A DNA stretch of 64,000 nt from Lysobacterales bacterium (GTDB lineage: Bacteria > Pseudomonadota > Gammaproteobacteria > Xanthomonadales > UBA2363): positions 14,007-78,006 of the forward strand of contig JALOAK010000009.1 in assembly GCA_023228845.1 (NCBI GenBank), in the 5' to 3' direction. Positions 4,930 through 56,552 of the stretch are shown here, in pieces; within the stretch, counting starts at the first letter, position 1, and the number at the start of each line of letters is the position of its first letter. The translations under genes and the position numbers were made by a program. The notes beneath the pieces are model-generated. The model saw nothing but the letters and a program-made list of their open reading frames with translations. It was not told the DNA's origin and made no database searches.

Positions 4930-6138
<1,209 letters not shown>

Positions 6139-6286: not shown

Positions 6287-6320
6287 CTTTCGGGTATCTG
6301 GATGGCGAGCTGGCGCTCGC

Positions 6321-6587: not shown

Positions 6588-6635
6588 GGGGGCAATCTCC
6601 GGGAAATGGGTTCGGGTGGGTGATAAAGACCGCCA

Positions 6636-6664
6636 ATTATGCCCCGGTGCGAAGGTCGGGTCAA
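6636..6664 (-). promoter_or_regulatory. Candidate sigma70 promoter of rpsT
   Basis: Minus strand: TTGACC (6664-6659), a 17-nt spacer, then CATAAT (6641-6636), about 49 nt upstream of the TTG start. Confidence 0.4.
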
Positions 6665-6942
6665 TATCCATGTGATCGCAGGCCAGCCTGGGCCTTAGCC
6701 GTCAAGTCGCGCGCCCGGCGCTGGTTCGAAGCAGCGTTCGGTTCAATGGTCGCGCTGGCGCGTAGGCGATCTGCCGGATGACGGGCGTGGAACGAACGGC
6801 GACAATGCCAGGCTGCGGTCTGGCCCGGTCCGGCCTTTGGGTTTTTCACCGGCAAGGCGGGCTCGGCCGGTACTTGGCGCCGGTCGGTCAGTGTGCAGTT
6901 CGCGGCAGCCGGGGCCGGGCCGGCGTCATCGCAGGGGTATTG

Positions 6943-8502
6943 ATGAAGCTGTTGCGTTCCACCCTGGTGTTCTCGTCGCTGACCTTCCTGTCGCGGCTGT
7001 CCGGCTATGCCCGCGACATGGTCCAGGCGATCGTGTTCGGCGCCACCGGGCTCACCGACGCTTTCGTGGTCGCCTACCGGATTCCCAATTTCCTGCGCCG
7101 CATCTTTGCCGAGGGCGCCTTCGCCCAGGCCTTCGTGCCGGTGCTCAGCGCCGCCCGCCAGGAGGGCGACCGCGCCGCGCTCAAGCTGTTGCTGGATCGG
7201 GTCGCCGGCACCCTGTGCGCCGTGGTGCTGGTGGTCACCGGACTGGGCATGATCGCCGCGCCGGCGCTGGTCACCGTGTTTGCGCCCGGCTACCTGGACG
7301 ACCCGGTACGCCACAGCGCCGCCAGCGACATGCTGCGCATCACCTTCCCCTACCTGTTCTTCATCTCGATGACCGCCATGGCCGGCGGCGTGCTCAACAG
7401 CTTCAACCGCTTCGCCATTCCGGCGCTGACCCCGATCCTGCACAACCTGGCGATCATCGCCGCCGCCCTGTGGCTGGCGCCGCTGCTGTCGGTGCCGGTG
7501 ATGGCCCTGGCCTGGGGCGTATTCGCGGCCGGGGCGATCCAGATGCTGGTGCAGGTGCCGGCGCTGGCCCGGCTGGGCCTGTTGCCCCGGCCGCGCTGGC
7601 GCCCGGCCGATCCGGGCGTGCGCCGGATCCTGCGGCTGATGGGCCCGGCCGTGCTCAGTGCCTCGGCAGCGCAGATCAACCTGCTGGTCGGCACCGCCTT
7701 TGCCTCGCTGCTGATCGCCGGCAGCCAGACCTGGCTGTACATGGCCGACCGCCTGCTGGAGTTTCCCATCGGCATGATCGGCGTCGCCCTGGGCACGGTG
7801 TTGCTGCCGACCCTGTCGCGGCGCCAGGCTGCCGGTGACGACGCCGGCTACCGGCAATCGCTGGACTGGGGCGTGCGCCTGGTGCTGATCATTGCGCTGC
7901 CGGCGGCCACCGGCCTGATCGTCCTGGCCGAGCCGATCTGCGCCACGCTGTACCAGCACGGCCGCTTCACCGAGCAGGACACGGCGATGACCGCCTTGGC
8001 GCTGGTCGCGCTGTGCCTGGGCCTGCCCGGCTTCATGCTCAGCAAGGTGCTGGCGCCGGCTTTTTTCGCGCGTCAGGACACCGCCACACCCATGCGCGCG
8101 GCGCTGATTGTGGTGGCGGTGAATCTGGTGCTGGTGACGGCGCTGGTGCTGCCGTTGCGGGCCGCCGGTGCCACCGGGACCCATGCCGCCATCGCCTTGT
8201 CGACCGGCATCTGCGGCCTGCTCCATGCCGGCCTGCTGGCTTTCTGGCTACACCGGCGCCAGCTCTACCGGCCGGCGGCCGGCAGCCTGGGCTTCCTGTC
8301 GCTGATCGTTCTGGCCTGCATGGCCATGGCGGCCTTGCTGTGGGCGGGCCGTGAGTGGCTCGGGCCATGGGCGCAACTGCCTCCGGTATCGCGGCTGCTG
8401 CATCTGGGCTGGCTGATTCCGGCTGCGGTCGCGGCCTATGTCGCGGTGCTGTTGGCGGCAGGCATGCGCTGGCGCCATCTGCGCGAGCCACCGACGGCCT
8501 GA
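6943..8502 (+). CDS. murJ: Lipid II flippase MurJ (MviN)
   Basis: ATG 6943 gives MKLLRSTLVFSSLTFLSRLSGYARDMV...FVVAYRIPNFLRRIFAEGAFAQAFVP, the canonical MurJ N-terminus. Polytopic membrane protein, divergent from rpsT. Confidence 0.9.
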   Translation: MKLLRSTLVFSSLTFLSRLSGYARDMVQAIVFGATGLTDAFVVAYRIPNFLRRIFAEGAFAQAFVPVLSAARQEGDRAALKLLLDRVAGTLCAVVLVVTGLGMIAAPALVTVFAPGYLDDPVRHSAASDMLRITFPYLFFISMTAMAGGVLNSFNRFAIPALTPILHNLAIIAAALWLAPLLSVPVMALAWGVFAAGAIQMLVQVPALARLGLLPRPRWRPADPGVRRILRLMGPAVLSASAAQINLLVGTAFASLLIAGSQTWLYMADRLLEFPIGMIGVALGTVLLPTLSRRQAAGDDAGYRQSLDWGVRLVLIIALPAATGLIVLAEPICATLYQHGRFTEQDTAMTALALVALCLGLPGFMLSKVLAPAFFARQDTATPMRAALIVVAVNLVLVTALVLPLRAAGATGTHAAIALSTGICGLLHAGLLAFWLHRRQLYRPAAGSLGFLSLIVLACMAMAALLWAGREWLGPWAQLPPVSRLLHLGWLIPAAVAAYVAVLLAAGMRWRHLREPPTA

Positions 8503-24097: not shown

Positions 24098-25045
24098 TTA
24101 CCAGGGGGATTCGAAGCCGTTGGCGAAGATATTCTCGCAGCTGGTCGGGATGGCCAGTTCCCACTCACCCAGCGGGTCATCGACGGACAGCGGATTGAAG
24201 GCCCCGGTATCCAGGTCGAAGGTGCCGAACACGTTGCGGCCGCTGCCGATGTAGAGCGAGGCATACAGCTTGCCGCTGGCGTTGTCGAAATCCATGCCCT
24301 GGGCGAAGTTGGTGCTGAACTGGTAGGGACCAACCAGGTCGGCGGCGCCGGTATCCGGGTCGATGCGGTAGAACGAGTCGGTCGTGATGCTGTGGCCGTA
24401 CAGCTCGCCGGCACAGTTCATGGCGATGTCGATCATCAGGGGCACGCCCATATCGCCGATGACGTCGGCAACGCCGGTGTCCAGGTCGATCGAGTACAGG
24501 GTGCTGTTGCCGCCGGTGACGCTGTCGGAAACATAGGCCGCTCCGGTCACCGGGTGGATGGTCAGGCCGGTGAAGTTGGCATTGTTCGGTACACCGCTGA
24601 CCGGAGCGGTCGATGTGAACTGGCCGGTCCCGATATCCAGGGTGCCCAGCGCGCGCAGATCGTTGTCGATCGCGTGCAGGATGGTTCCGGTGGGATCAAA
24701 GTCCAGGGCGTAGATGTGCATGCCGGCATCTCCGATCAGGCTGACCCCGGGGAAGTCATCAAGAAGGAAGGCATGCAGCCCCCTGTCAGGCCCCCCGTTG
24801 GCCGCGGTCAGGTTGTAGGCGAACGCCAGATCGTCTGGGGCCAATGCCGAGGCACGCCACGGGCCGGGCACCGGGGCGTTGGTCCGGGGCGCACATTGGG
24901 CAGCCCAGCCGGGCGGCTCGGCCTCGGCGCTGTGGGCCAGACCGGCGCAGTCCAGCGGTGCCTGGGCCGGCGTTGCGGCCAGCGGCTGGGCGAGGGTGGC
25001 GCAGGACAACAGCAGCGGCAGCAATAGCGGGGTGGTCTTCATCAT
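24098..25045 (-). CDS. Secreted beta-propeller-like repeat protein ending in IFANGFESPW
   Basis: Signal peptide MMKTTPLLLPLLLSCATLAQPLAA. Repeated blades of the type YALDFDPTG, LTIHPVTGAAYVSD, LYSIDLDTG, FYRIDPDTG, GMDFDNASGKLYAS and TFDLDTG. No family name assigned. Confidence 0.7.
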   Translation of the reverse strand: MMKTTPLLLPLLLSCATLAQPLAATPAQAPLDCAGLAHSAEAEPPGWAAQCAPRTNAPVPGPWRASALAPDDLAFAYNLTAANGGPDRGLHAFLLDDFPGVSLIGDAGMHIYALDFDPTGTILHAIDNDLRALGTLDIGTGQFTSTAPVSGVPNNANFTGLTIHPVTGAAYVSDSVTGGNSTLYSIDLDTGVADVIGDMGVPLMIDIAMNCAGELYGHSITTDSFYRIDPDTGAADLVGPYQFSTNFAQGMDFDNASGKLYASLYIGSGRNVFGTFDLDTGAFNPLSVDDPLGEWELAIPTSCENIFANGFESPW

Positions 25046-25217
25046 CGCTTCGGCACTCCGGGGGTGGTTTGAGGAATTGATGGCCAGCAACCGGGCAAGT
25101 CACCGGCCACTGGAGACAAGCAACGGTGAAGGCACCCGGGAACGGCCACCGCTGCTGCGGCCATGGACCCGGAGTGGGCGATACTGTGCGATCCGTCCAT
25201 TGCCTTGGTGACCCTGG

Positions 25218-41335: not shown

Positions 41336-41552
41336 GCGTCGGGCTGAGCATCGGCACACCGGTCGCTGCCATGGCGGGCGGATAGCCGGCGGCTCCGGCA
41401 ATGCCCGAGGGCTGACGCCGGCCCGCAGCCTGTGTGCATTTCGCTGCGGACAAGCCTGACAGTTGGCCCCGCCCGGCCCGCAGGACGCCGGCTCCGCGGG
41501 CAGCGGCCATTACACTGGGCCAATCTTCAGGCAACCCAGGAATTCCCCAATC

Positions 41553-42242
41553 ATGAATCGAACCGTCGTCATTACCGGCGCCGCGGGCGCACTCGGCCGC
41601 GTCGTCGCCCGCCATTTCCTCGACCAGGGTGCGCGGCTGGTGCTGCTCGACCGCGAGCTGGCCCTGCTGCAGTCGGCGTTCGCCGACCTGGACGGCGCTG
41701 CCGGCCATCGGCTTCTGGCCGCCGATGTCACCAACGAGGATGTCATGACGCAGGTTCTGGCTCGGGTTGGCGACATCGATGTGCTGGTGCACGCCGCCGG
41801 CGGCTTCACCATGGGCGAGAGCGTGGCTGAGCTGTCGCGCGCCACCTGGGAACACATGCTGGCACTCAACGCCTGGTCGTTCGTCGCCGCCGCCCGCGCC
41901 GTGGTACCGGGCATGGTCGAACGCGGCCAGGGCCGGATCATCGCCGTTAGCGCCCGCGCCGCCGCCCAGGGCGCGGCCGGCATGGCCGCCTATGTCGCCG
42001 CCAAGAGCGCGCTGCAGCGCCTGGTCGAAACCCTGTCGGCGGAAGTGCGCGAGCAGGGCATCGCGGTCAACAGCATCGCCCCCAGCATCATCGATACCGC
42101 GGCCAACCGTCAGGACATGCCCGATGCCGACCCAGCGCGCTGGGTGGCACCGGTGACGCTGGCCGAGACCATCGGCTTCCTGGCCTCCGAAGCCGGTGGC
42201 GCGATCCACGGCCAGCACCTGGTGGTGTCGGGCCTTTCCTGA
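41553..42242 (+). CDS. Short-chain dehydrogenase/reductase (SDR)
   Basis: ATG 41553. ITGAAGALGRVVA (TGxxxGxG) and YVAAK (YxxxK). Confidence 0.88.
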   Translation: MNRTVVITGAAGALGRVVARHFLDQGARLVLLDRELALLQSAFADLDGAAGHRLLAADVTNEDVMTQVLARVGDIDVLVHAAGGFTMGESVAELSRATWEHMLALNAWSFVAAARAVVPGMVERGQGRIIAVSARAAAQGAAGMAAYVAAKSALQRLVETLSAEVREQGIAVNSIAPSIIDTAANRQDMPDADPARWVAPVTLAETIGFLASEAGGAIHGQHLVVSGLS

Positions 42243-42378
42243 GCATGGGCCGGTGCATGGGCCGGGTTTCGGCCCGGCGATGGCTTGGCGACGGCCAGGA
42301 TTTGCTCTGTTGCAGCCGGCCCGGTCGCGGTTTCTTTCGTACAAGGCGCCGGCCGGCTGCCCGCAGCGCTTAATGCGA

Positions 42379-42490
42379 CGCCATCAGCCGGTACGGATAT
42401 CCCGCACCGGCACCTTGAACGGGCCGCATTCGCGGCCCGTTTCGATCAGCAGCCGGGCCGCTCCGGCCCGCACTCGAAGCCATCGCGCAG
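42379..42490. repeat. Direct repeat copy A (112 bp): orphan copy of the S8 gene 3' end plus hairpin
   Basis: 108/112 identical by hand alignment to 46232-46343. Its minus strand encodes only LRDGFECGPERPGC-stop, with in-frame stops upstream. Contains the hairpin acgggccgc-attc-gcggcccgt (42419-42440). Confidence 0.9.
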
Positions 42491-42732
42491 TCTACTGTCC
42501 GCAGACCTTCAAGGTCAGCATTCCCCAGTGGCGGTCGAAGCGGTCGCATTGGGGTGCGCCACGAAAAGACAAAAGTGCATAATAGTTAACTGTTTGAGAT
42601 CATTTTTCCCGCTATCTTCACCTTCGCATTCGTGAGGCGGAGCCCTTCAGGGGTGGCCAGATCCCAGGCCTTAAGGGATTTCTCGAAAAGTTATCAAAAC
42701 AGATCCGTCCCCAGCTCATCCAGGAAACAGTC

Positions 42733-45501
42733 ATGCGCGCACTCATCCTGTTTATCGCTGTAGTCTCTTCGCTGGTAGCCGCACCGTTCGCATGCAGCTC
42801 GGAGATCGACGATTCCGTCATGGCCCTGCGCCATCGGCTTTCTGAAAGTGGCAGCCATATCTTGATGGCGGCCCCGGCCTCCCAACGGCCGGCAACAACT
42901 GCGAATCTGATCGAAGCCCTGTCTATTCCTAACGCGCAGTTTCTGGACGTGAGCCTGGAGGCGCCGCCGCTGTCCGTGGCCGTGTTGCCGGAGTTAGGCG
43001 CTATCCGCCCGACACAGGGAAGCCACTTTGTTGTGCTGAGCACTGGCGTTGCCGGCAGCACGCAACCGGTACCGGGACAAGACTACCGCTCTGCAGACGG
43101 ACGGGGCAACGGCGCCACCCTGACACTGGTGCTTGACCCGCCACCGGGCACGGCGCAGTTGTCGCTCGACTACCTTTTTCTCACCGCTGAGTACCCCGCG
43201 TTCGTCGGTAGCTTGTACGAAGACCGGTTCACCGCCACGCTTACCGACGCCGAAGGACGAAAGGCTGTTTTCGATCTGAACGCCGGCAGCCCCCTTGTCC
43301 ACCCCGTCACCCCCAAACCTTATCAGGGCAGCGGCTTCGACCTGTTCACGCCCGACCCATTGGCGCTTGATGCCGAATTCGGCCTGGGGCTCCCGGCAGC
43401 CGGAACCACCGGCTGGCGGACCTTGACCCTGCCTTTCATGGCCCAGGGCCCGATCATGGTCGAACTGGAAATCCGCGATGCCGGCGACGGGTTGTTCGAT
43501 TCGACTGTCTTGTTGAGCAACCTGCAGATCACATCGATGATGTTGCTCGGCGAAGGCGACGATCATTTCTGGCGATCCTGCGCTCATGCCTATAGCAGCA
43601 CAGGACCTTTCCCAATGCGCCAACCGGTGCCACCTGGGCCTGGCGCATTTGGTGTAGTCGCCGATGGCAAGACGAAATGGCCATATGCGATCCTCAATAC
43701 CACTCGCTTTGATTATGTGCAATACGCCCTGATTGGTGGCTCCGCACCTGAAGACGGCGGCTTGGGCGGACCCGGCACCAACGACCGCTTGGATCTGGTT
43801 CTGTTGCCGATCACCGAACAGTTGGTTCCCGGCTTCTGGGGCGCCTATGCTCATTTCTTCGCCCCGGAGGAGTTCAATCGTGGAGGCGACGAGGACGATG
43901 CCGAGCGCCAGTTTGCGATTCAGACCTGCTTTCGCAATGTAGGCGGTCCGTTGCAACACTGCACGACGCGGCCTTTTCGTATCCTGCGACCTCCGGTGGT
44001 CCTGATGCACGGGCTGTGGTCACGTGCCCAAGTCTGGCGCGACTCACCTATTCATCGTGATGAAAGAACTCGAACTTTTCCCGTGAACTATGCGGCTACA
44101 CATGCCCGCGGATTCGCCGTCAATTCGAAGACCCCAGAAGGAAAGATGATGGAGTCATGCTTTCAACTTCATGAAGAGAATGTTCTGTCATCACGAGTTG
44201 ATTTTGTTGGACACAGCATGGGCGGAAATCTGGGCAGGCTCTACAATTCCCATGCCAGCAACCGGATAAACAAACTAATCACCATCAACACTCCACACCA
44301 TGGGTCGCCCTTCGCCAATGTAACGGCAGGTGTACGCGACTCGCTTCCCATTGAAGCCCGGTTGGCCATGAATATGGTAATGCGTCTCATCAAACGCGCA
44401 ATCGACGAAGGCGCTATCGACGACCTGGTCGAAAACAGTGCCGGAATAACCTCGATTCCAGCCACACTCATTCCCGGTCACGCATTGGTTGGCACCGGTG
44501 GTTCGGCCTATGTCGGGGAGCAGCTGAGACACGCACCAACGGTGGATGCGCTAACGTATGCCGTGCTACATTTTTTCGTCGAGGGCGCTCTGAATTTACT
44601 GTTCGATGGCGAAGAACACGACCTGATAGTGGCGCGTGGCAGCCAGACCGGTGGGCTCAGCCCACTCGCCAGCACCCTCTATTCGGGCGCCGACAGTATG
44701 CACACACTTGCACCCTCAAGCACGAACTATGCTGCGGGCGTCATGGAGCTGCTAAACAGCCATAGGCTCGGGTCTATGTTCGAATATTTCCCTGAGCCCA
44801 CGATCCTGACCTCCTCCCTCCTGGATAAGTGGTCCGCCGTAGCGCCGACGTTGTCTGAACGGCTAGCTAGGATTGAGGTGATTCCTTCCGGCATCGAAGT
44901 ACTTGTTCCTGGCGATGGGAGCCCGGCAACAGCCGGTGAGCCTGTGCAGTTCACTGTCGTTGCAGCCGATGGTTTCGGCCTCAATAAGGTTCTGGTGATA
45001 GGTAGCGATTCTCATGCCTTGATCGAACAGCCGCCCTTCGAACAGAACGTGTGGATTCCACTAGAACATGCTGGCGCGATGGCCTTCGCGGTGTTAGGGA
45101 AGGATGCAAGCGGAAATATTACAGGGCCCGTTGAAGTATCTGTCCAAGTCACTGTGTCGGCCAGTTTACTCGGGGTGGACATCCTAAACAGCACAGGCTA
45201 TCTGTTCGGCATCGGTGATAATCTCCAACTCTCGGTCCAAGGCCTCTACGACGACGATATCGACCGCGACCTCACCCATCCGTCCACGGGAACGGTATAC
45301 TTTAGTTCGAATCCATCGATCGCAACGGTTGATGAAAATGGAAGAGTTACCTCGGTCGACCATGGAACCACTGCGATCATCGCCCAGAACGGTAATTTCC
45401 AAGACGGTATCTTGGTAACAGTCATGCATGACGATCGCCTATTCGCCAATGGTTTTGAGACGTTCCAGTGGCGTGCGGCGGCTGCAATCATGGGCCGTTG
45501 A
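42733..45501 (+). CDS. 922-aa secreted multidomain lipase/alpha-beta hydrolase (choice-of-anchor-L-like N domain, GHSMGG hydrolase core, Ig-like/Big_2 C domains), ending in LFANGFE...
   Basis: Signal peptide MRALILFIAVVSSLVAAPFA. LSLDYLFLTAEYPAFVGSLYEDRFTATL resembles choice-of-anchor L. VVLMHGLWS...VDFVGHSMGGNLG is a nucleophile elbow. VTSVDHGTTAIIAQ is Big_2-like. Confidence 0.8.
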   Translation: MRALILFIAVVSSLVAAPFACSSEIDDSVMALRHRLSESGSHILMAAPASQRPATTANLIEALSIPNAQFLDVSLEAPPLSVAVLPELGAIRPTQGSHFVVLSTGVAGSTQPVPGQDYRSADGRGNGATLTLVLDPPPGTAQLSLDYLFLTAEYPAFVGSLYEDRFTATLTDAEGRKAVFDLNAGSPLVHPVTPKPYQGSGFDLFTPDPLALDAEFGLGLPAAGTTGWRTLTLPFMAQGPIMVELEIRDAGDGLFDSTVLLSNLQITSMMLLGEGDDHFWRSCAHAYSSTGPFPMRQPVPPGPGAFGVVADGKTKWPYAILNTTRFDYVQYALIGGSAPEDGGLGGPGTNDRLDLVLLPITEQLVPGFWGAYAHFFAPEEFNRGGDEDDAERQFAIQTCFRNVGGPLQHCTTRPFRILRPPVVLMHGLWSRAQVWRDSPIHRDERTRTFPVNYAATHARGFAVNSKTPEGKMMESCFQLHEENVLSSRVDFVGHSMGGNLGRLYNSHASNRINKLITINTPHHGSPFANVTAGVRDSLPIEARLAMNMVMRLIKRAIDEGAIDDLVENSAGITSIPATLIPGHALVGTGGSAYVGEQLRHAPTVDALTYAVLHFFVEGALNLLFDGEEHDLIVARGSQTGGLSPLASTLYSGADSMHTLAPSSTNYAAGVMELLNSHRLGSMFEYFPEPTILTSSLLDKWSAVAPTLSERLARIEVIPSGIEVLVPGDGSPATAGEPVQFTVVAADGFGLNKVLVIGSDSHALIEQPPFEQNVWIPLEHAGAMAFAVLGKDASGNITGPVEVSVQVTVSASLLGVDILNSTGYLFGIGDNLQLSVQGLYDDDIDRDLTHPSTGTVYFSSNPSIATVDENGRVTSVDHGTTAIIAQNGNFQDGILVTVMHDDRLFANGFETFQWRAAAAIMGR

Positions 45502-45511
45502 GGGATTAAGA

Positions 45512-46177
45512 ATGCACAGGCCCCTTTTTCTCTTGCTTATTTGCGTGCTGCTGTCTGGCTGCGGCGATTTGTTGCATCCGATCAAAATGCTTGCCGCAGG
45601 CGCCAGGGAGCCAAAGCCACTTGAACAGCAGTATCATAGTCTTGCAAGAGAAATTGCTTCACCGAAGCCGTGTCTACTGGTTTCCTCCAGCGCCATCAGT
45701 TTTTCCGCCTGGGGAGGCCCCGGAGCCAGATATATTCGCATCAGGTCCGACTGTTATCTAGAAGTGGCACTTAAAACACAGAACATACATCTTTGCGATC
45801 AAATAGAAAATATCCCTGTTTGGATGGAGCGTGACTCCCTTCTTGGACCCCATTATTGTCGCCAACTCGTCGAACAGCGAAACAGAGGTATCGGAGAGAT
45901 GCCCGACCTGTCACTGCTGATGAGCGAAATGGGTTACGCCGACGATGAAATCGAACAGGCCAGTGGCAATCCTCGCAGAACCATGCGGTCCGAAGAGTTC
46001 TTCTATCGTATCGACCGGTTGCCGCACTACGGCAGCGAAGAGGACAGGCGCCAGATGCAGGCCATGGTCTGGCAGCCGCCAGCGCAGCATCCACCACAAC
46101 CGGATGTCTGTGGTCCCCACGAGCAGCCACCCGGTGACGGCGAGCCACCCAGGATATGCATTCCGTTCCCTGGATAG
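45512..46177 (+). CDS. Cys-rich lipoprotein of unknown function, probably co-transcribed with the lipase
   Basis: ATG 45512 lies 10 nt after the lipase stop, with GAGGGA upstream. Lipobox LLSGC. No recognisable family. Confidence 0.65.
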   Translation: MHRPLFLLLICVLLSGCGDLLHPIKMLAAGAREPKPLEQQYHSLAREIASPKPCLLVSSSAISFSAWGGPGARYIRIRSDCYLEVALKTQNIHLCDQIENIPVWMERDSLLGPHYCRQLVEQRNRGIGEMPDLSLLMSEMGYADDEIEQASGNPRRTMRSEEFFYRIDRLPHYGSEEDRRQMQAMVWQPPAQHPPQPDVCGPHEQPPGDGEPPRICIPFPG

Positions 46178-46231
46178 TTGGTCCTGGTCGACTGGCACGG
46201 CTTGATTGCCGATGGACGGATGATCCGCCGG

Positions 46232-46343
46232 CGCCATCAGCCAGTATGGATATCCCGCACCGGCACTTTCAACGGGCCGCATTCGCGGCCCGTTTCGATC
46301 AGCAGCCGGGCCGCTCCGGCCCGCACTCGAAGCCATCGCGCAG
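46232..46343. repeat. Direct repeat copy B (112 bp) overlapping the functional 3' end of the S8 protease gene
   Basis: Covers the last 14 codons plus stop (46299-46343) and the downstream hairpin at 46272-46293. Confidence 0.9.
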
Positions 46344-48959
46344 CAGGATTTCCGGCGAAGCCAGTACCTGCGTGGTCTCGCTGGCGTGGTTGTTGCCGGT
46401 GTCCGGATCGGCCGCGATGGCGCTGACCTGGGCAATGGTGGTGATCAGCCCGGCCGGCGTGCGCACGTCGACCAGGGCGTCGATCTCCAGCACCGGTGCC
46501 AGGCTGGCCGCGGGCGTGCCAGTGGCCAGGGTGCAGGTCACTTGGCCGGCATCCGGCAGACAGGTCCAGTCGCGGCCGCTGCCACCATCCACGGTGCGCG
46601 CCTGGCCGTAGTCGGTGCCATCGGGAAGCTCAAGCACCACGGTGATCTCGCCGCTGTCATCGGGTCCGAAGTTGACCACATTGACCACCCAGGTGAGCGG
46701 ATTGCCGGCGATGACCGGGTCGGGCACATCGGCCAGGCTCAGCGCCAGGTCGGCGCCCGGAGCGCTGCCCGCAGGTTGGCAGTTGTAGCAGACCAGGGCG
46801 AAATCCTGGGCGTTGCTGGCGCCGGCATTGGGCAGGGCGTTGGAGTTGATGTCGGCGGCCAGCACCTCCACCGCAATCACGCCGCCGTGCTGGTCCGGGC
46901 GCAGGAACACGCCTTCGGTGTTGTTGCGGTGCTCGGCGCTGCCGCCGGTGGCCGACCAGCCATCGGTGAAAACATTGCCCAGGTAGAGCTGGTCATCGGC
47001 CTGCACACGCAGATCCAGATCATTGTTCCAGGCCGGCGTGCTGCTGCCCAGGCCGTGGCCGGGAGCGTCGGTCCACACCAGCATCAGGCGCATCGGCTGA
47101 TCCGGGTCGCCGGCTTCCCAGGTTTGCTGCCAGCTCTGGCCGGTGGCGTCGAACACGTGTTCCTGGTCGACATAGACCACCGGCAGCTCCGGTGCCAGGA
47201 CGGCGGCCGGGCGCATCCGGCCCCAGCCCTGCTTGCGATCGGGGCGAGCGCCGATCGGGTTGTTGTTGGCATCGTTGTTGCCGACCAGATCCTGGCTCAC
47301 CGGCAGGAACGCGGCCTTGACCAGGGCCGGGCTGGGATCGGCCCCGGCCAGCTCCCGGTAGTACTGGAAGAACAGGCCGGCGGCGCCGGCGACATGCGGC
47401 GCGGCCTGGCTGGTGCCGCCCTGCATGACATAGCCGCTGCTGCCGGCGGTGGAATCGGTGAACCGGCTGTTGGCGATCATGTGCGGGATGAAGCGGCCAT
47501 CCAGGGCCGGGCCGTGGCCACTGTTGGCGGAAATATGCTCGTTGCGCAGATCCTGGGTGTTGGCATCGACCTGGGCCCAGGCCGAGCCGATGGTGAAGAT
47601 GTTCTTGGCCTCGTCGGGGATGCCCTGCGAGCTGGTGCCGCCACCGCCATTGTCGATCGCCAGGACATACAGCAGCGGCTGGTCGCCGGTGGCGTCGGTA
47701 TCGGCATCGCGGCTGCCGATGTCGACCTGGCGCGCGGTGGACTCGTAGCCGGCCGGCCCGCTGCCGCCCCAACTGTTGTTGGACAGCACCGCGCCGTTGC
47801 GCACCGAATCGCGCATCCGGTTCAGATAGGCGGGCGTGCCGGCCGCAAAGGTGTAGCGCTGCTCGATCAACTGCGCGCCCGGCGCCATGCCCAGGCCGCG
47901 CAGCAACCCATGGCTGTTGGTGAGCCCGGAGCTGCCGTCGGCGGCCATGATGCCGGCGACATGGGTGCCGTGATCGCCACCCTGAGTGCCATTGCCGCAG
48001 GTCGGCCCGGTGCAGGGCAGCATGCGGTTGATCAGGTCGGGATGGTTGGCCTGGGTACCGCTGTCGACGCAGGCCATGATCACACCGCTGCCATCCAGTT
48101 CCAGGTTCTCGAGGAAGGCCAGGTAGCCCGGGTAGGCAAGGCCGCCGGCGTCGACATTGCCGAAGTTGATCTGCACGCTGGTTTCGCTGCGGTTGAACGG
48201 CTCGATCACCGGTTGCACGGCGTAGATGCCGGGCAGGGACGCCAGTTGCGGCAGGCGGCTGGCGGCGACCTGCACCGTCAGCATGTCCAGATGGCGATCC
48301 AGGCGGCCACGGTCCTGCACTGTCACCGCCAGGGCGGCCAGGCGCTGGTCAAGATCGGCCAGGCCGGGGCGCGCCAGCAGGCTGACAGCGATCAGGCCCT
48401 CGCCATCGCGGCGCATCACCGGCGGCAACCGGTAGTCGGGCAGGAACTCGCCCTGCCAACGCACGCCGGGCAGTTGCCCAGCGCGGGCCTGGGCGGTCGC
48501 GTCGGCCCAGACCACATAGGTATGCGGATGGATGTACTGCACCGGCTCGATGCCGGCGGCGGCCAGCTCATCCAGCCATTGCTGTTTCACCGGGCCTTGG
48601 AACTGCACCAGGCGCCAGTCCGGCTCCGGTGTCGCCTGCCAGCCGGCGAACGGCGCCGCGCTCAGTTGTGCGGTCAAGTTCAATGGGTCGAAGCGTTGGC
48701 CGCCCAGATCCAGCTCGAACGGCCGCTCGACGACATGGATTTCCAGGCCTTCGGCACGCAGCGCGTCGATATCGGCGCTGGCCATCGGCAGCCAGCGGAA
48801 GGCGCCGTAATCAATGACGTTGCCGGAGTGCAGGCGTGCGTCGAGCTGGTCGGCTGCGCCGTGCACGCGCACCCAGCTCCGCGCATCGGTGGCAGCCGCG
48901 GTGGCCATGCTGGTGGCGAGCAGGACGGCGAGGGTGAAGCGGGCGAGAGTCAGGCTCAT
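46299..48959 (-). CDS. Secreted subtilisin-like serine protease (S8) with C-terminal DUF11-like domain, ending in LLRDGFECGPERPGC
   Basis: ATG (CAT 48957-48959) follows GGAG. Signal peptide MSLTLARFTLAVLLATSMATAAA. Catalytic triad contexts VDSGTQANHPD, HGTHVAGIMAA and GGTSQAAPHVAGAAGL. Confidence 0.9.
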   Translation of the reverse strand: MSLTLARFTLAVLLATSMATAAATDARSWVRVHGAADQLDARLHSGNVIDYGAFRWLPMASADIDALRAEGLEIHVVERPFELDLGGQRFDPLNLTAQLSAAPFAGWQATPEPDWRLVQFQGPVKQQWLDELAAAGIEPVQYIHPHTYVVWADATAQARAGQLPGVRWQGEFLPDYRLPPVMRRDGEGLIAVSLLARPGLADLDQRLAALAVTVQDRGRLDRHLDMLTVQVAASRLPQLASLPGIYAVQPVIEPFNRSETSVQINFGNVDAGGLAYPGYLAFLENLELDGSGVIMACVDSGTQANHPDLINRMLPCTGPTCGNGTQGGDHGTHVAGIMAADGSSGLTNSHGLLRGLGMAPGAQLIEQRYTFAAGTPAYLNRMRDSVRNGAVLSNNSWGGSGPAGYESTARQVDIGSRDADTDATGDQPLLYVLAIDNGGGGTSSQGIPDEAKNIFTIGSAWAQVDANTQDLRNEHISANSGHGPALDGRFIPHMIANSRFTDSTAGSSGYVMQGGTSQAAPHVAGAAGLFFQYYRELAGADPSPALVKAAFLPVSQDLVGNNDANNNPIGARPDRKQGWGRMRPAAVLAPELPVVYVDQEHVFDATGQSWQQTWEAGDPDQPMRLMLVWTDAPGHGLGSSTPAWNNDLDLRVQADDQLYLGNVFTDGWSATGGSAEHRNNTEGVFLRPDQHGGVIAVEVLAADINSNALPNAGASNAQDFALVCYNCQPAGSAPGADLALSLADVPDPVIAGNPLTWVVNVVNFGPDDSGEITVVLELPDGTDYGQARTVDGGSGRDWTCLPDAGQVTCTLATGTPAASLAPVLEIDALVDVRTPAGLITTIAQVSAIAADPDTGNNHASETTQVLASPEILLRDGFECGPERPGC

Positions 48960-49352
48960 GGCGCGGTCTCCGGGGAGGGGTTGGACGGGCAACGGGGCCG
49001 TGGTCGGAAGTGCCGGCAGCGCCGGGAAGGCAGGATGGCAGTCTGGGTGTGGCAAACGCTGGGCCGCCGGTAATTGTATCGTCGGGAGGGGCTGGCGGTG
49101 GGCCGGGATTTTACGGGTCATCGGCGCCGGCGCTGCGCTGGCACCGCACTGGCAAAAACATCGGCACCGGCCCCGGTGCTGGCATCGACATGGCCATCGG
49201 CCAAAACACCAGCGTCGGCACTGGCTGGCGCCGGGTGGCTATGCTGGCGCCAAGGCCGGCCGATCCGGCACCGGTAGCGACAACGCCACGGAAGCGGCGA
49301 TCAGCGGCGACCAGGAGAGCACAGCGATGACAGCAGCGGCGCGGAGCGATCA

Positions 49353-51897: not shown

Positions 51898-52158
51898 ATG
51901 AGCCGCATCGATGACAATCACACCCGCCCTGATACCGGCCCGGCCAGCCCGCCGCAGATCGAGATCGACGGCGCCCTGGTCGCGCGCAGTCTAGGCCTTG
52001 AGGTCGCGCGCTTCCGCGAACTGATGGCCCAGCGCAAGATCGCCGTGCTCTGCGAGCGCGGCACCGGCGACGACGCCGGCCTGTACCGGGCCACGTTCTA
52101 CTACGGCAGCAAACGGCTGCGCCTGGTGGTGGATGAGCAGGGTCAGATAGCTGGGTGA
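51898..52158 (+). CDS. Small hypothetical protein (recalls DUF6522-type proteins, from memory only)
   Basis: ATG 51898. ...IAVLCERGTGDDAGLYRATFYYGSKRLRLVVDEQGQI. Confidence 0.45.
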   Translation: MSRIDDNHTRPDTGPASPPQIEIDGALVARSLGLEVARFRELMAQRKIAVLCERGTGDDAGLYRATFYYGSKRLRLVVDEQGQIAG

Positions 52159-52477
52159 ACCCTGCGGCTTCACCCCTCTGGCTGTGGCTTGACATACCAT
52201 TCCTGGAGCATCGCCAAGCCGACAAGGAACTCTCATCCGGCCGCATCCCGGTCGAGATCTTGAAGCGATACGAGAAGTGGAAGGACATCGCCATGTTGTC
52301 CGGGCCTCAAGGCCTGCGGGCAATCAAGGGCTTTCGGGACGAGGCGTTGGGCGGCGAGTGGAAAGGGCACAGATCCTGCCGATTGAACGAGCAATGGCGG
52401 GTCATCTACACGGTTCAAGCTGACAAGCTCCTTGTCCAAGTCGTTCGTGTCACACCCATGACTACCGGAAACGCTGA
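52155..52477 (+). pseudogene. RelE/HigB-superfamily toxin gene with an apparent 1-nt deletion near its 3' end
   Basis: ...GFRDEALGGEWKGHRSCRLNEQWRVIYTVQADKLLVQVVRVTP is in frame. The expected ending HDYRKR-stop (TGA 52475-52477) is reached only by shifting 1 nt at the CCC run 52455-52457. Confidence 0.6.
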
Positions 52478-52478
52478 T

Positions 52479-52733
52479 ATGCGCAATTACATTCCTGCCA
52501 ACAAGCGCGTGGACGTGACTCCCGGGGAGTCTGTGCGCATCGTTCGCGAGCTCCGGGGATTGAGCCAGACACAGTTGTCCTCGCTTTGCGGCATTCCCCA
52601 GACAGCCATTTCCAGCATCGAGAATGGTCGGGTCAACCTCGGGGTTGAGCGCGCAAAAACCTTGGCTGTCGCACTGCATTGCCATCCGGCCGTTCTGGTC
52701 TTTCCTGGCTGGCAAGTCGAGTCTGCCGCCTGA
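52479..52733 (+). CDS. XRE-family HTH antitoxin (HigA-like)
   Basis: MRNYIP...VRIVRELRGLSQTQLSSLCGIPQTAISSIENGRVNLGVERAKTLAVAL is a classic Cro/C1 HTH. The ATG lies 1 nt after the shifted-frame toxin stop. Confidence 0.75.
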   Translation: MRNYIPANKRVDVTPGESVRIVRELRGLSQTQLSSLCGIPQTAISSIENGRVNLGVERAKTLAVALHCHPAVLVFPGWQVESAA

Positions 52734-53448
52734 CAATGCCTCACAGCGGGAGACGGGCCATCGTGTACCTCACATTATTTTCTGCCCGCTGCTTAACGCC
52801 GCTGGCTCCCCACAGCGAGATCAATGAGACGTGCAAAGCGAACGACCTGCCGGTACCCTCCAGATAGACCCTCAGCAAGGCTTCGGGCCTCACCTTTCGG
52901 ATGCGTTTCTCGACCTGTATGGTGAGGACTCGGTCTTTGTAAACGCTGCTGTAGATTTGCTCACCTGGCAATTCGTAGCCGTTCTTATCAAAGCTGAAAA
53001 GCTCCCTGCAGACTTTGTGCCAATTCAATACGGCACTCCCGAGATGCGGCACACCCTCGACGCCCTTCTCAAGACTCTTGCTGGCCGCGGCTTGGAAAAG
53101 CCTTCCACGGCGCTCATGCGGTCTGCTGTAGGGCAGGAACAGCCGCAGGCCTTTCAAACCGCAGCCAGCACCTTGCTTGGGTACGATCTGGTGTCGCGGT
53201 GGTTGCAGCGGTTAGAGCAACACAACTATGCGGGTGCTGACGCGTTATTGGCCATGCAGTAGCTGGACGCGCCGCTTCGCTGCGCAGCTTCCAGCAACTG
53301 GGTGTTGACTCCCGGTCGGCAGGCAAAGGCCTGACGTGGCATCTCAAGAGCTCTGGGAAGGTTTTCGCGCATCGTGACCAATGGCACGCTCTGAGATCAC
53401 AGCAGAAGCCATTCAATTGAACTCTTAGGGCTGAAGGACGAGTACTGC

Positions 53449-54144
53449 ATGGTCGATCTACAAAGAGCAGGTGGCATCGCCGCAGTGCTCCAGGCGCTGG
53501 CGTATGTCGTGGGATTTGCTGTTCTGGCCACGTTGCTCAATCCTGGGAACACAGAGAGCTGGAGCTCTGAGCAGCGGCTCGATTTCATCCTGGAAAGGAA
53601 GCTGGGCTTCCAGATCTGGATGAACTTCATCTACGTGGTCTTCGGCATCGCACTGGTCATCCTGGCTACGGCACTTCACGAACGGCTCAAGAATCATCTG
53701 CCGGGATTGATGCAAGTGGCAACAGCTTTCGGCCTGATCTGGGCGGGTCTTGTGATCGCCAGCGGCATGGTTTCGAGCGTCGGGCTGGAAAGTGTGGCTG
53801 CGCTTCATGCCGAAGACCTTGAACAGGCTGTGTCGTTATGGCATGCGGTAAATGCTATACAACTCGGTCTTGGGGGCGGTGTCGAGATCGTTGGCGGGTT
53901 GTGGGTGCTGTTGATCAGCGTCGCGGCATTGCGCTCCAGAAAGTTGTCAACGACGTTGAGCTATCTTGGCGTCGTGGTCGGCGTTGCCGGTCTCCTAACC
54001 ATTGTGCCTGCGCTCGGCGACCTGGGGATGATATTTGGGCTTGGTCAGATTCTCTGGTTCATCTGGATTGGCTTCCATCTACTTTGTCGCCCCGCCGCTG
54101 ACGACTCATCCAAGCCAACAACGCGCCGGGGCGGAGCAGCGTAG
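53449..54144 (+). CDS. DUF4386-like polytopic membrane protein
   Basis: GAAGGA lies upstream of ATG 53449. Six hydrophobic segments; overall pattern typical of DUF4386. Confidence 0.65.
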   Translation: MVDLQRAGGIAAVLQALAYVVGFAVLATLLNPGNTESWSSEQRLDFILERKLGFQIWMNFIYVVFGIALVILATALHERLKNHLPGLMQVATAFGLIWAGLVIASGMVSSVGLESVAALHAEDLEQAVSLWHAVNAIQLGLGGGVEIVGGLWVLLISVAALRSRKLSTTLSYLGVVVGVAGLLTIVPALGDLGMIFGLGQILWFIWIGFHLLCRPAADDSSKPTTRRGGAA

Positions 54145-54157
54145 GTTTTCAACTGCT

Positions 54158-54620
54158 ATGGACACAGTACGGATCCGGGAAGCAAGGCCTGCAGATGCCT
54201 CTGCCATCTGCGGACTACTGAAGACCATGATTCCGCTCGTGGTCCCGGATACGGCTGATTCGGCAGCGCGCATATTCCTAGAGCCTGCCAGAGGCTGCGG
54301 TGGCGGAGCGCCTTTTGGCCCTGAACTATTCGCACTTTGTCGCCGAGCGCGGCACGGAGTTTTGCGGTTACCTTGCCACCCGGGACGGATCTCACCTTTA
54401 CCATCTGTTCGTCCGGCCTGAGCTTCACAGGCAGGGCATTGGACGTCTGCTGTGGCAGCATCTTCTCCGTGTCAATGGCCCCGGACCCTACACGGTAAAC
54501 TCATCGCTTTCGGCCGTTGCCGTCTATCGAAGCTTCGGTTTTGTCTCCTCCGGGGCGCCACAACTTCACTGCTGCCCACCCTACGTGCCCATGACGTATA
54601 TCGGTGGCAGCCAAGGATGA
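54158..54620 (+). pseudogene. GNAT family N-acetyltransferase interrupted by a frameshift
   Basis: Frame 1 reads MDTVRIREARPADASAICGLL...ARIFLEP. Frame +1 continues (SLPEAA)VAERLLALNYSHFVAERGTEFCGYLATRDGSHLYHLFVRPELHRQGIGRLLWQHL...AVAVYRSFGF. The switch lies between about 54270 and 54300. Confidence 0.65.
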
Positions 54621-54772
54621 CGCTACGTTTGATCTCCCGCTGGCTCATTTCGTGGCGCCAACGCCGCAAGAGCAGTTCACGGTGGTACTGCATGAGCGCG
54701 CCTGAGCATTCGTCGAGGCCGACCGCGCATCGTTCCTGAATTTTTTCGTTCGCCAGTGCTGATACGCTTCCG

Positions 54773-54814
54773 GCTGTCAGCTGTCAGCTGTCAGCTGTCA
54801 GCTGTCAGCCGTCA
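54773..54814. repeat. 6 x 7-nt tandem repeat (GCTGTCA x5 plus GCCGTCA)
   Basis: Read directly. The array ends 65 nt upstream of the yegP ATG. Each unit junction creates CAGCTG. Confidence 0.95.
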
Positions 54815-54879
54815 CCGCAGCGGGCGGCTCAACACAAGCACGCAACTGGATTTCCCTCATCGTTGATACAAGGAGAAAC

Positions 54880-55215
54880 ATGATGGCAGGTTGGTTTGAA
54901 CTGGGTAAAAGCTCGGACGGGCAGTTTCGCTTCGTTCTGAAGGCTGGCAACGCTGAAACCATCCTCACCAGCGAGCTGTACAAATCCCAGGCTTCGGCAA
55001 GGAACGGCATTGCCTCCGTGCAATCGAACTCAGCCGACGCCTCCAGGTACGAGAAGAAGGAGGCGAGCAACGGCAAGCCCTACTTCAACCTCAAGGCAGC
55101 CAATCACCAGGTCATCGGAACCAGTCAAATGTATGCGTCGGTGGCGTCACGAGACGCAGGGATTGCGTCTGTTCAAGCCAATGGCAAAACAACAACAGTG
55201 AAGGACAGCACCTGA
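54880..55215 (+). CDS. yegP: YegP family protein (two DUF1508 repeats)
   Basis: AAGGAG lies upstream. WFELGKSSDGQFRFVLKAGNAETILTSELYKSQASARNGIASVQ and KPYFNLKAANHQVIGTSQMYASVASRDAGIASVQ are the tandem DUF1508 signature. Confidence 0.88.
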   Translation: MMAGWFELGKSSDGQFRFVLKAGNAETILTSELYKSQASARNGIASVQSNSADASRYEKKEASNGKPYFNLKAANHQVIGTSQMYASVASRDAGIASVQANGKTTTVKDST

Positions 55216-55255
55216 CAAGGCATTCAGGCCGAGGCCGCGTCGTGTCCGGCCTGAC

Positions 55256-55681
55256 ATGGGGAGTGCGGTGGTGGTCTACAAGTCCAAAGTCGATACATGG
55301 CTGGTTGCGGTGCTCGCGATTGCCGGCTGTGCTTCCCTGTTCGGCGCAGCCGTCACCGTGGCTGAGGGTTCTGCCATCGCGTGGGCGCTTGGCGTGTTCA
55401 TCGCAGGCATCGGCGCAGCCCTGCCCATCTGGCTGCTGTTGTCGACGCGCTATACCTTGCAGCCAGACCGGCTGATCGTTCAGAGCGGCCCGTTCAAGTG
55501 GCGCGTTCCCGTCGCCGATATCACCGGGGTCACCCCCACTGGCAACCCGCTTTCAAGCCCGGCGTTGTCACTGGACCGGCTTCGTATCGACTATGGGCGC
55601 GGCGCCTCGCTGATGATCTCCCCTCGCGACAAGGACAGGTTCCTCAGCGATTTGGAGGCCGCACGTCGCGGTGGTGCCTGA
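55256..55681 (+). CDS. Membrane protein with bacterial PH domain (bPH_2/YdbS-like)
   Basis: Two N-terminal TM segments, then YTLQPDRLIVQSGPFKWRVPVADITGV...LDRLRIDYG, typical of bPH_2. Confidence 0.7.
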   Translation: MGSAVVVYKSKVDTWLVAVLAIAGCASLFGAAVTVAEGSAIAWALGVFIAGIGAALPIWLLLSTRYTLQPDRLIVQSGPFKWRVPVADITGVTPTGNPLSSPALSLDRLRIDYGRGASLMISPRDKDRFLSDLEAARRGGA

Positions 55682-55775
55682 CTTCGCTACGCGAATAAAT
55701 CGAGACGTTTAACTGCGCCGAGAGCTGCCCGCAAACGTGGCTCGACGTTCGGACGAATGTATTTCCGCGCCGTGT

Positions 55776-56552
55776 ATGGAGAACACGCCGATGCCAGAAG
55801 CAACCGATAGCTCGTGGCGCCGCCGCAAAGACTTGATCATACGCGTGTTGGCGGTTTTGGTCGTGCTGGTTTCGTATTATTCGATCCAGTACATCACCGA
55901 TGTGCTGGCCGTTCGCAGTTTTCTGGATCTGCCTGATGATTGGTGGCTGATTGCGTTCGATCATCATCTTGTCCAGATGATGTGCGCGTTGGCGGCGATC
56001 GCAGTCCTGTCGAGAGGACGCTGGCAAGACTGGGGTCTGAACTTTCGTAATTACCAGGAATCGTTCCGAATACTATGGCGCTTCCTGTATTACTACGGCG
56101 TCTATTTCATAGGCATCGGCTTTGTCGTCCAGCTTCTGTTCTTGCCTGCACGGACCTTGGTTGAGGAACTGGATGCAGGCAATATCATGGGCAGATTGGC
56201 GTTCGGGTTTGTGTTTGTCGGCTTGTCGGAAGAGATTCTGTTCCGTGGCCTGTTTCACACCTTTCTCGGCCTATTCTGGATTGGAATGACACGCTGGCGG
56301 TCAGTCGAGATGCCGTGGGCGGGCTGGATTTCTGCCGCTGTTTTCACCTTGGCCCATATTGGTGTCAGTTTCCCGGCATTTGAAGTCACACATCTGTATG
56401 TGCCGCAGCTTGTGCTGGCTTTCGCACTGGGGCTGTTCTATTCGTGGGCCTACCACCGCACGGGGAGCTTGCTGGCGCCGGTACTGGCGCATAACCTGTC
56501 GAACGGCCTGCTTTGGTCAAGCGAGTATCTGCTTGTATGGCTGAAGACGTGA
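55776..56552 (+). CDS. CPBP family intramembrane glutamic endopeptidase (CAAX protease/Abi)
   Basis: Motifs GLSEEILFRGLFH (EExxxR), AAVFTLAH (FxxxH) and VLAHNLSN (HxxxN). The start is ATG 55776 or 55791. Confidence 0.85.
   Translation: MENTPMPEATDSSWRRRKDLIIRVLAVLVVLVSYYSIQYITDVLAVRSFLDLPDDWWLIAFDHHLVQMMCALAAIAVLSRGRWQDWGLNFRNYQESFRILWRFLYYYGVYFIGIGFVVQLLFLPARTLVEELDAGNIMGRLAFGFVFVGLSEEILFRGLFHTFLGLFWIGMTRWRSVEMPWAGWISAAVFTLAHIGVSFPAFEVTHLYVPQLVLAFALGLFYSWAYHRTGSLLAPVLAHNLSNGLLWSSEYLLVWLKT

Follow-up and report, generated by a model that had tools for sequence, protein, structure and literature searches.

How does a pair of foreign-looking genes come to lie between two convergent chromosomal genes, with the 3′ end of one of them duplicated and both left intact, when no mobility enzyme accompanies them? 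The locus that raises this question belongs to a Pseudofulvimonas genome of 3.16 Mb and lies within the 64-kb stretch of DNA analysed here as a whole (the window), where a preliminary description had placed an islet of low G+C flanked by direct repeats. From left to right, its parts are:

41463 to 42242, + strand: SDR (FabG-like short-chain dehydrogenase) gene, native left flank (Pfam adh_short, E = 1.8e-41)
42243 to 42375, no strand: native spacer downstream of SDR, outside the repeat
42376 to 42490, - strand: repeat copy A, attL-like, orphan duplicate of the S8 3′ module (BLAST, alignment, fold); in + strand coordinates hp1 at 42387-42411, hp2 at 42418-42441, orphan stop at 42446-42448 and 14 orphan codons at 42449-42490
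42491 to 42732, + strand: islet left end, a non-coding leader of 242 nt, richer in A+T, ahead of the hydrolase gene
42733 to 45501, + strand: cargo gene 1, a 922-aa secreted multidomain alpha/beta-hydrolase (Pfam PGAP1, Abhydrolase_1, Big_2)
45512 to 46177, + strand: cargo gene 2, a 221-aa lipoprotein with lipobox LLSG/C, of a family with no Pfam match
46178 to 46228, no strand: islet right end, the 51 nt from the lipoprotein stop to copy B, unique in the genome
46229 to 46343, - strand: repeat copy B, attR-like, with hp1 (2 changes), hp2, the S8 stop at 46299-46301 and the last 14 S8 codons (alignment)
46299 to 49121, - strand: intact S8 subtilase gene with a DUF11 domain, 940 aa, native right flank (Pfam Peptidase_S8, E = 6.7e-28)

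The repeats (42376-42490 and 46229-46343) are direct, 115 nt each and identical at 110 of 115 positions, with five mismatches; they are the pair of the preliminary description, whose 112 nt and four mismatches correspond to the same alignment trimmed by 3 nt. BLAST over the whole genome returns only these two copies (E = 3.7e-48), and both hairpins, the tail and both islet ends are also unique in a whole-genome scan allowing 4-7 mismatches; with exactly two copies and unique sub-motifs, a REP or MITE element is rejected, and the count agrees with the att-like duplication proposed earlier. Copy B supplies LRDGFECGPERPGC, the stop and both hairpins of the intact 940-aa S8 gene, whose C-terminus, LLRDGFECGPERPGC, is identical to that of the orthologue in genome G006. 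Copy A reads ...C-stop-P-stop-RSADSR followed by LRDGFECGPERPGC and a stop, with in-frame stops 6 and 8 codons upstream and no gene remnant upstream in any frame, and translation thus confirms the earlier view of copy B as the completion of S8 (14 codons, stop and hairpin) and of copy A as an orphan. The fold of copy A has a z-score of -4.0, hp1 and hp2 each amount to about -21 kcal/mol, and hp1 has the form of an imperfect palindrome (10-5-10). The repeats end sharply on both sides (residual homology beyond either boundary, p = 0.15-0.86): the native spacer (42243-42375) is not homologous to what lies left of copy B, nor the islet right end to what lies left of copy A.

All five mismatches are confined to 42 nt at the end of the module that points away from the S8 gene body, and the S8-proximal 73 nt do not differ between the copies; the identical block next to S8 reported earlier is therefore present, but its length is 73 nt, not 70. 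Such a gradient, an argument that comprises five sites, has P = 0.0065 under a uniform spread of mismatches, and on the assumption of divergence after insertion the finding of no changes in the orphan copy's unconstrained 73 nt has P = 0.013. The gradient suggests that two modules already differed when they recombined. An incoming DNA that would have carried its own diverged copy of the module fits it; a filled-in target duplication does not.

The DNA between the copies (3,738 bp) has a G+C content of 0.566 as against a genome mean of 0.673, which places it within the lowest 0.47% of genome windows of the same size (sd 0.025), and GC3 is 0.63 in the hydrolase gene and 0.58 in the reading frame that holds the lipoprotein gene, compared with about 0.85 in flanking genes, so that windowed G+C and GC3 both bear out the low G+C first noticed here. 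The islet is tightly packed: apart from a leader of 242 nt and a trailer of 51 nt it consists of two intact genes, the only ones between the repeats; the lipase and lipoprotein genes that had been named as its sole content were recovered as the alpha/beta-hydrolase and the lipoprotein. The hydrolase has a signal peptide, a choice-of-anchor-L-like N-terminal domain (called from a weak NCBIfam choice_anch_L match), a GHSMGG nucleophile elbow, Big_2 domains and a C-terminus ending in ...LFANGFETFQWRAAAAIMGR. In a search of 5.8 billion proteins its best homologue reached 37% identity, and seven same-genus genomes hold no convincing homologue, the one weak match (E = 1.5e-4) lying at another locus of genome G005. 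Four cysteines are invariant in the lipoprotein family; an AF2 single-sequence model of the protein was unusable (pLDDT 39.8). A conserved hydrolase-lipoprotein pair is rejected, as the best homologues of the hydrolase are followed downstream by a gene that is not related to the lipoprotein (BLASTP E = 0.015; hhalign probability 0.4%). This rare secreted hydrolase and the cysteine-containing lipoprotein, both uncharacterised, are secondary in interest to the islet that holds them.

The earlier statement that no integrase is present holds for islet and window alike in profile scans: Pfam and NCBIfam scans and a genome search with PF00589 detect no recombinase in the islet, in the 64-kb window or within 85 kb. 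Nor did Pfam scans reveal a transposase or a replication gene in the islet; no integrase pseudogene or other mobility-gene remnant was found in it, its non-coding ends included, the leader holds neither a gene remnant nor a terminal inverted repeat, and the ends at 42491 and 46228 form no terminal inverted repeats. Seven tyrosine recombinases (PF00589) are encoded in the genome, the nearest 85 kb from the islet; PF00239 has no match in the genome (no serine recombinase), and no further copy of the att-like module occurs next to any integrase. Several classes of element were rejected against this background. The locus does have attL/attR repeats that duplicate the target 3′ end with the gene intact (115 nt, copy B completing S8), as an integrase-encoding island would, but has no recombinase gene beside an att site. 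A transposon or insertion sequence is rejected for want of transposase and terminal inverted repeats and for a duplication of 115 bp rather than a short one (2-15 bp). An integron cassette is rejected in that the IntI-like gene is on another contig (C1:420083-420682) and the islet, which comprises two genes behind a leader of its own, is bordered by duplicated target DNA and not by attC; hp1 and the islet leader are unlike dif by eye, and a Xer/dif-type site is likewise rejected.

Related genomes show the junction in other states. The SDR gene is part of a conserved folE2-MerC-SDR block, with synteny kept in genomes G006, G001, G002, G005 and G003, and the site is empty in three of the same genus, G006, G001 (P. 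gallinarii DSM 21944) and G002, where SDR and S8 are convergent and 55-160 nt apart with one hairpin between them. This is exactly the arrangement (SDR, a single repeat, S8) that had been predicted for relatives, and it supports the proposed insertion into the S8 3′ end with an att-like duplication. At the same junction G005 has a different cargo of 3.9 kb, also of lower G+C and without repeats, comprising an AraC regulator, Roadblock/LC7 proteins and a small GTPase, and in G003 the SDR gene adjoins a divergent S8 gene. The different cargo in G005 marks the SDR-S8 junction as what is, to judge from these genomes, an accessory-gene hotspot. Hotspots of accessory-gene integration are known between conserved core genes, and the junction resembles them in being filled differently here and in G005 and empty in G006, G001 and G002; it differs in that turnover through flanking homologous recombination does not by itself yield a 115-bp flanking duplication. 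The segment between the repeats is, by its foreign composition, its rare cargo and the empty site in relatives, all read from sequence, a horizontally acquired islet. Its donor was sought in three ways: a hydrolase-based search for related loci in the genome contigs and metagenome contigs yielded no donor and no second islet, an exact-pattern scan of the metagenome contigs for the hairpin plus tail core gave no match, and plasmids and phages, queried by blastn with the complete islet, gave none either.

Repeat, foreign composition, empty site, sharp boundaries, mismatch gradient and recombinase absence are direct observations, and the account we consider probable is that the 3.85-kb islet (3,738 bp of cargo plus an extra 115-bp module) was formed when incoming module-bearing DNA integrated by a single Campbell-type exchange. 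The 115-bp module consists of the last 14 S8 codons, the stop and the two downstream hairpins, and the incoming DNA would most likely have carried its own, slightly diverged version on a molecule that was probably a circle, or else linear with both ends inside the module; we infer the circular intermediate. One reciprocal exchange inside the identical 73-nt part would have integrated this DNA Campbell-fashion and left a chimeric module on either side of the islet. Copy A would now end the SDR transcription unit, and copy B would restore the S8 tail and terminator and also terminate the cargo operon, so that the insertion would have left both neighbours, SDR and S8, undamaged. Because the islet encodes no recombinase, the exchange would have been made by host functions or by an integrase acting in trans. 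The perfect identity over 73 bp should allow occasional precise excision, which would make the islet potentially mobile today, and the excised circle would read ...GATCCGCCGG-[115-nt module]-TCTACTGTCC... The recombinase-less, repeat-flanked microcin H47 island offers a precedent (PMC5426353). Against this account, neither a donor, as source of the incoming 115-bp module, nor a second instance of the islet was found; from an element that had simply captured the S8 locus of a relative one would expect more than 14 codons of S8 coding sequence; the mismatch gradient consists of five sites only; and integration in an earlier host, followed by double-crossover transfer of the whole repeat-islet-repeat block, would look alike.

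That last scenario has a counterpart in its own right, in which the whole repeat-islet-repeat block would have come from an unsampled close relative through a double crossover in the SDR and S8 flanks; this would amount to an allele swap at a hotspot of accessory genes, with a duplication that had formed earlier in another genome by an unspecified event. The variability of the junction (a different 3.9-kb cargo without repeats in G005, SDR next to a divergent S8 gene in G003) speaks for such a swap, yet the formation of the duplication would merely be moved elsewhere and not explained, and the islet is absent from every sampled genome; we regard this origin as quite unlikely. Unlikely too, if somewhat less so, is a remnant of a site-specific integrative element, whether a relic of the CIME type or an element served by an integrase in trans. 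Here a tyrosine integrase would have used the S8 3′ end as attB, with attP carrying the replacement 3′ end, and the integrase gene would later have been deleted or would never have been on the element. A discrete, sharp-edged 115-nt module that restores the 3′ end of its target gene is a classical att footprint, the 10-5-10 imperfect palindrome of hp1 resembles a recombinase core site, the genome does encode seven tyrosine recombinases, and CIMEs are a defined class (PMC5704250). The tightly packed islet, however, contains no integrase, pseudogene or mobility remnant, the nearest recombinase is 85 kb away in a genome with no serine recombinase, and no other att-like module lies beside any integrase in the genome.

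Two further readings fare poorly. According to the preliminary description, tail-to-tail recombination between exoprotein genes was an alternative, copy A being the tail of another gene with the LRDGFE C-terminal motif. The repeat boundary does fall at the start of the motif, and the C-terminal pattern [IL]F.[DNS]GFE is shared by about 20 large ORFs of the genome, with DGFECGPGRPGC at the end of one other; but non-coding DNA downstream of S8 accounts for 70 of the 115 repeated nt and is present in both copies, the in-frame stops 6 and 8 codons upstream of copy A are accompanied by no coding remnant, no other GFE-tail gene matches the repeat at the DNA level, and homology stops at the boundary, all of which contradicts this proposal and makes it very improbable. 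It is also scarcely credible that the assembler threaded a free 3.85-kb circle, sharing the 73-nt core, into the chromosome: the gene-distal part of one copy is distinct from that of the other and adjoins a different flank, the identical core of 73 nt is shorter than ordinary reads, and the islet sits deep inside a 170-kb contig and has no replication gene.

Elements that target and restore the 3′ end of protein-coding or tRNA genes include e14 and phage 21 in icd and the islands of tRNA genes; their attL/attR identity block can reach 100 bp or more, and the integrase is encoded next to one att site. As in e14 and phage 21, a replacement 3′ end is supplied at the islet and the displaced native end is orphaned on the far side; unlike them, the islet encodes no integrase. 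Closer in this respect is the microcin H47 island of E. coli, which has 13 kb, lacks a recombinase, is bounded by long imperfect direct repeats (attL/attR) (PMC5426353), and excises as a circle and re-integrates via unidentified RecA-independent host functions (Azpiroz and Lavina 2017, PMC5426353). The islet is likewise small, encodes no recombinase and lies between long, imperfect direct repeats, structural features by which it corresponds to the H47 type. It differs in size (3.85 kb vs 13 kb), in its cargo (hydrolase and lipoprotein, not a microcin system) and in what its repeats duplicate, namely a protein-coding gene's 3′ end together with the terminator; moreover, the mobility of the H47 island is experimental, whereas that of the islet is what we infer. 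CIMEs, or cis-mobilizable elements, are decayed ICEs or IMEs that keep attL and attR (review, PMC5704250). They share with the islet the flanking att sites, the lack of integration and transfer genes, the position at the 3′ end of a target gene and the duplication of the gene end, and with repeats present and mobility genes not found the islet matches them in structure, which is the extent of the match. By descent they differ, as CIMEs derive from an ICE or IME and need the cognate integrase of a related element at the same site; the islet holds no ICE/IME relics, no cognate element or further att copy exists in the genome, and searches of plasmids, phages and metagenome contigs turned up no related element. 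The microcin H47 island and the CIMEs are thus the closest known systems, and the islet cleanly represents an already known type of enzyme-less islet.

As a clean natural case of gene gain without a dedicated mobility enzyme, the locus would offer a tractable substrate for asking which host pathway recombines repeats of 70-115 bp. Islets of this kind are relevant to the question of how small, G+C-rich genomes take up accessory genes at sites where the neighbouring genes suffer no harm, in this case the shared terminator between convergent genes. It is conceivable, if doubtful, that the islet represents a class of recombinase-less cassettes, widespread yet for the most part undescribed, which would use a portable host 3′ end and terminator as attachment module; a recombination pathway encoded by the host, and possibly independent of RecA, would move them, as has been proposed for the H47 island.

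Two other blocks in the genome have the same footprint and are compatible with a class of recombinase-less cassettes. One is an OsmC tail around a type I R-M/Abi island, with mismatches that are also gene-distal; most of the genus lacks the OsmC gene, and all relatives vary in the DNA that lies downstream of lysS. The other is a GGT tail around nrdAB, with mismatches spread along the repeat; in relatives the GGT tail is present once, with nrdAB absent from the 1.5 kb that follow downstream, and the ancestral neighbour at this locus is weakly recognisable, at 28-30% identity.

The direct repeat delimited by a repeat search and a MAFFT alignment (copy A, 42376-42490; copy B, 46229-46343) spans 115 nt with 110 positions identical; it is the pair noticed in the preliminary description, where it had been trimmed by 3 nt, to 112 nt with 4 mismatches. 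As recognised there, copy B is the true end of the intact S8 protease gene and copy A an orphan tail. The S8 gene encodes a 940-aa S8/DUF11 protein, and stops in frame with the orphan tail lie 6 and 8 codons ahead of it. The islet between the copies (3,738 bp) holds two genes, preceded by a leader of 242 nt and followed by a trailer of 51 nt.

Parts of the repeated module, in the orientation of S8, and genes of the islet
Module, part 1: 14 codons (LRDGFECGPERPGC) and the stop
Module, part 2: hp2, a hairpin with a 10-bp stem (-21 kcal/mol, z = -4.5)
Module, part 3: hp1, a 10-5-10 hairpin (-20.8 kcal/mol, z = -3.8)
Cargo gene 1: secreted alpha/beta-hydrolase, 922 aa, matching PGAP1-like and Abhydrolase_1 models, with a GHSMGG elbow and Big_2 domains
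Cargo gene 2: lipoprotein, 221 aa, lipobox LLSG|C

The window's own assembly (3.16 Mb, 20 contigs, 99.9% complete) holds exactly two copies of the module (BLAST, E = 8.8e-55 and 3.7e-48), and fuzzy searches of the genome with sub-parts of module and islet (hairpin 1, hairpin 2, tail, both inner islet ends) gave no further matches. The many copies that would have marked a REP element or MITE are thus absent, and both identities are ruled out. Recombination between the tails of different exoprotein genes, offered earlier as an alternative, starts from a real motif, in that about 20 large, apparently secreted ORFs in the genome, the islet hydrolase included, end in [IL]F.[DNS]GFE, and one other protein ends in DGFECGPGRPGC. 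It is unsupported, because no such tail in the genome matches the repeat at the DNA level and 70 of the 115 nt are non-coding, downstream of S8. The motif itself could be a C-terminal signal or a structural cap, as yet uncharacterised, of exoproteins in Lysobacterales. Within the window it occurs at the extreme C-terminus of three apparently secreted ORFs, at 24098-25090 (-), 42733-45501 (+) and 46299-49121 (-); S8 orthologues across the genus have an extended tail with two cysteines (...[DN][GD]FEC...PGC), and the hydrolase of the islet has distant homologues that terminate in LFIDRF[EQ].

In composition the islet is distinct, as the low G+C reported from the sequence had indicated: its G+C is 0.566 vs 0.673 on average over the genome (sd 0.025 in windows of the same size), within the lowest 0.47%, and GC3 is 0.63 in the hydrolase gene and 0.58 in the frame holding the lipoprotein gene vs about 0.85 in neighbouring genes. 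Judged by database searches the hydrolase is nearly an orphan, its closest match among 5.8 billion proteins being 37% identical and the only match in seven same-genus genomes a weak one from a different locus of G005 (29% identity, E = 1.5e-4); its choice-of-anchor-L match is also weak. For the lipoprotein, a word-level search gave no relatives and an exhaustive HMMER scan 108 distant ones (best 43% identity), a family with four invariant cysteines and no Pfam match. Where the hydrolase has its nearest homologues, the next gene 3' bears no relation to the islet lipoprotein. The two cargo genes thus do not form a conserved module, in keeping with a G+C that is uneven across the islet.

A scan of species genomes gave the genus as Pseudofulvimonas: G001 is P. 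gallinarii DSM 21944, and the other relatives are Rhodanobacteraceae/Lysobacterales MAGs. The gene order folE2-MerC-SDR, with a convergent S8 gene next to it, is conserved.

State of the SDR/S8 junction in relatives
G006 (closest; SDR 87% nt, S8 81% aa identity): empty, one hairpin, tail identical (...LLRDGFECGPERPGC)
G001, G002: empty, one GC-rich hairpin
G003: SDR adjoins a divergent S8 gene (37% identity); the 69% orthologue lies on another contig
G005 (locus L036, G005:C6:11000-21000, positions 3609-7536): a different 3.9-kb insert of lower G+C at the same junction, without flanking repeats

The empty site that had been predicted, with SDR gene, single repeat and S8 gene, thus exists in three genomes, where the SDR and S8 stops lie 55-160 nt apart. 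Given these empty sites and the other states elsewhere, the insert in the window's genome (G000) is a derived feature specific to its lineage, and the junction is a place where variable DNA recurs, a hotspot. The G005 insert encodes an AraC regulator, two Roadblock/LC7-like proteins, a 316-aa unknown and a small Ras/Roc-like GTPase, a gene content similar to that of a conservon (cvn) cassette. The G006 spacer (L020, G006:C34, 3690-3800) contains a REP-like palindromic element (...CCCTCATTCGCTTGCGAAGGAGAG...CCCCGCTTCGCAAGCGAAGGGGGG...) resembling an 86-nt repeat family of G000 (C6:59597-59682 and C6:64399-64484).

No homology extends past either repeat boundary (local alignment, shuffled controls, p = 0.15-0.86) and no frame upstream of copy A holds a coding remnant, so the duplicated unit is a discrete module of 115 nt. 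The five mismatches are confined to the 42 nt at the end away from the S8 gene body, and the 73 nt nearest to it are identical (P = 0.0065 under uniform spread). Had the copies diverged after insertion at the distal rate (12%), about 4 changes would be expected in the other 73 nt of the unconstrained orphan copy, and none is observed (P = 0.013). The simplest reading is that the two modules already differed on meeting: incoming DNA would have brought its own version, and one reciprocal exchange within the identical part would have integrated it, Campbell-fashion. The mismatch pattern speaks against the filling-in of a staggered cut, since the copies would then have been identical at the start; for a transposase target duplication 115 bp is far outside the range, and terminal inverted repeats and a transposase are absent. 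Because the module contains terminator hairpins and the S8 tail, insertion would harm neither neighbour: copy A would still terminate the SDR unit, and copy B would complete the S8 gene and terminate both it and the cargo operon.

Neither islet nor window (64 kb) encodes a recombinase, in line with the absence of an integrase noted from the sequence. The genome has seven PF00589 matches, the nearest 85 kb off and none adjoined by a further module copy, and no serine recombinase. The data are compatible with two routes. The tight packing of the islet and its freedom from mobility relics favour host-mediated recombination across 73-115 bp of homology, RecA-dependent or RecA-independent, the latter having been described for the microcin H47 island of E. 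coli (PMC5426353). An integrase acting in trans, or one whose gene was later lost, as in cis-mobilizable elements (CIMEs; PMC5704250), is a possibility that predicts the sharp, gene-restoring module seen here. A third reading, import of the whole block by double crossover at the hotspot, is compatible with either route but would only shift the original event elsewhere. The arrangement works like that of att-flanked integrative islets. It differs from integrase-bearing islands, since it has no recombinase, and from CIMEs in the strict sense, since ICE/IME relics and a cognate element are both lacking; with H47-type recombinase-less islands, whose defining behaviour is excision and re-integration, it shares the structure, as far as sequence can tell. 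That such islets form a widespread class of host-recombined cassettes with a portable gene-tail module seems to us unlikely.

Self-BLAST of the genome revealed another two blocks that lie between duplicated 3' ends of genes, which makes the footprint look common, not exceptional.

Repeats bracketing the two further blocks in G000
C1:216545-216668 and C1:226993-227116 (locus L040, 3546-3669 and 13994-14117; outside the window): OsmC repeats, 124-nt direct, 96% identical
C10:112037-112214 and C10:117654-117830 (locus L041): GGT repeats, 178-nt direct, 94% identical, 1-nt indel in the orphan copy

The OsmC repeats are copies of the final ~39 codons of an OsmC-like gene and enclose a 10.3-kb block (G+C 0.63) with a type I R-M system (HsdR, HsdS, HsdM), an Abi_2 protein, a PIN toxin and no integrase; 4 of their 5 mismatches cluster gene-distally, like those of the S8 repeat, and the orphan copy encodes ...ALAQD-stop, the functional one ...ALAEN-stop. 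The GGT repeats are copies of a gamma-glutamyltransferase 3' end, and between them lie nrdB and nrdA, whose GC3 is native and very high; in relatives the GGT tail is single, and the 1.5 kb downstream of it contain no nrdAB. The window has another block of low G+C (0.56-0.60) next to prfA, at 52155-56552, which encodes an HTH/YafQ-like fused ORF, DUF4386, YegP (DUF1508), a bPH_4 protein and a CPBP/Rce1-like protease; it is free of recombinase genes and is not flanked by repeats of 40 nt or longer. At a contig end of G000 (C1:420008-427124), there is probably a chromosomal integron cassette array: after an IntI-like tyrosine recombinase (PF00589, 120 bits) come an IS110-like transposase and two direct repeats of 151 nt, a perfect match to each other, at 421765 and 426847.
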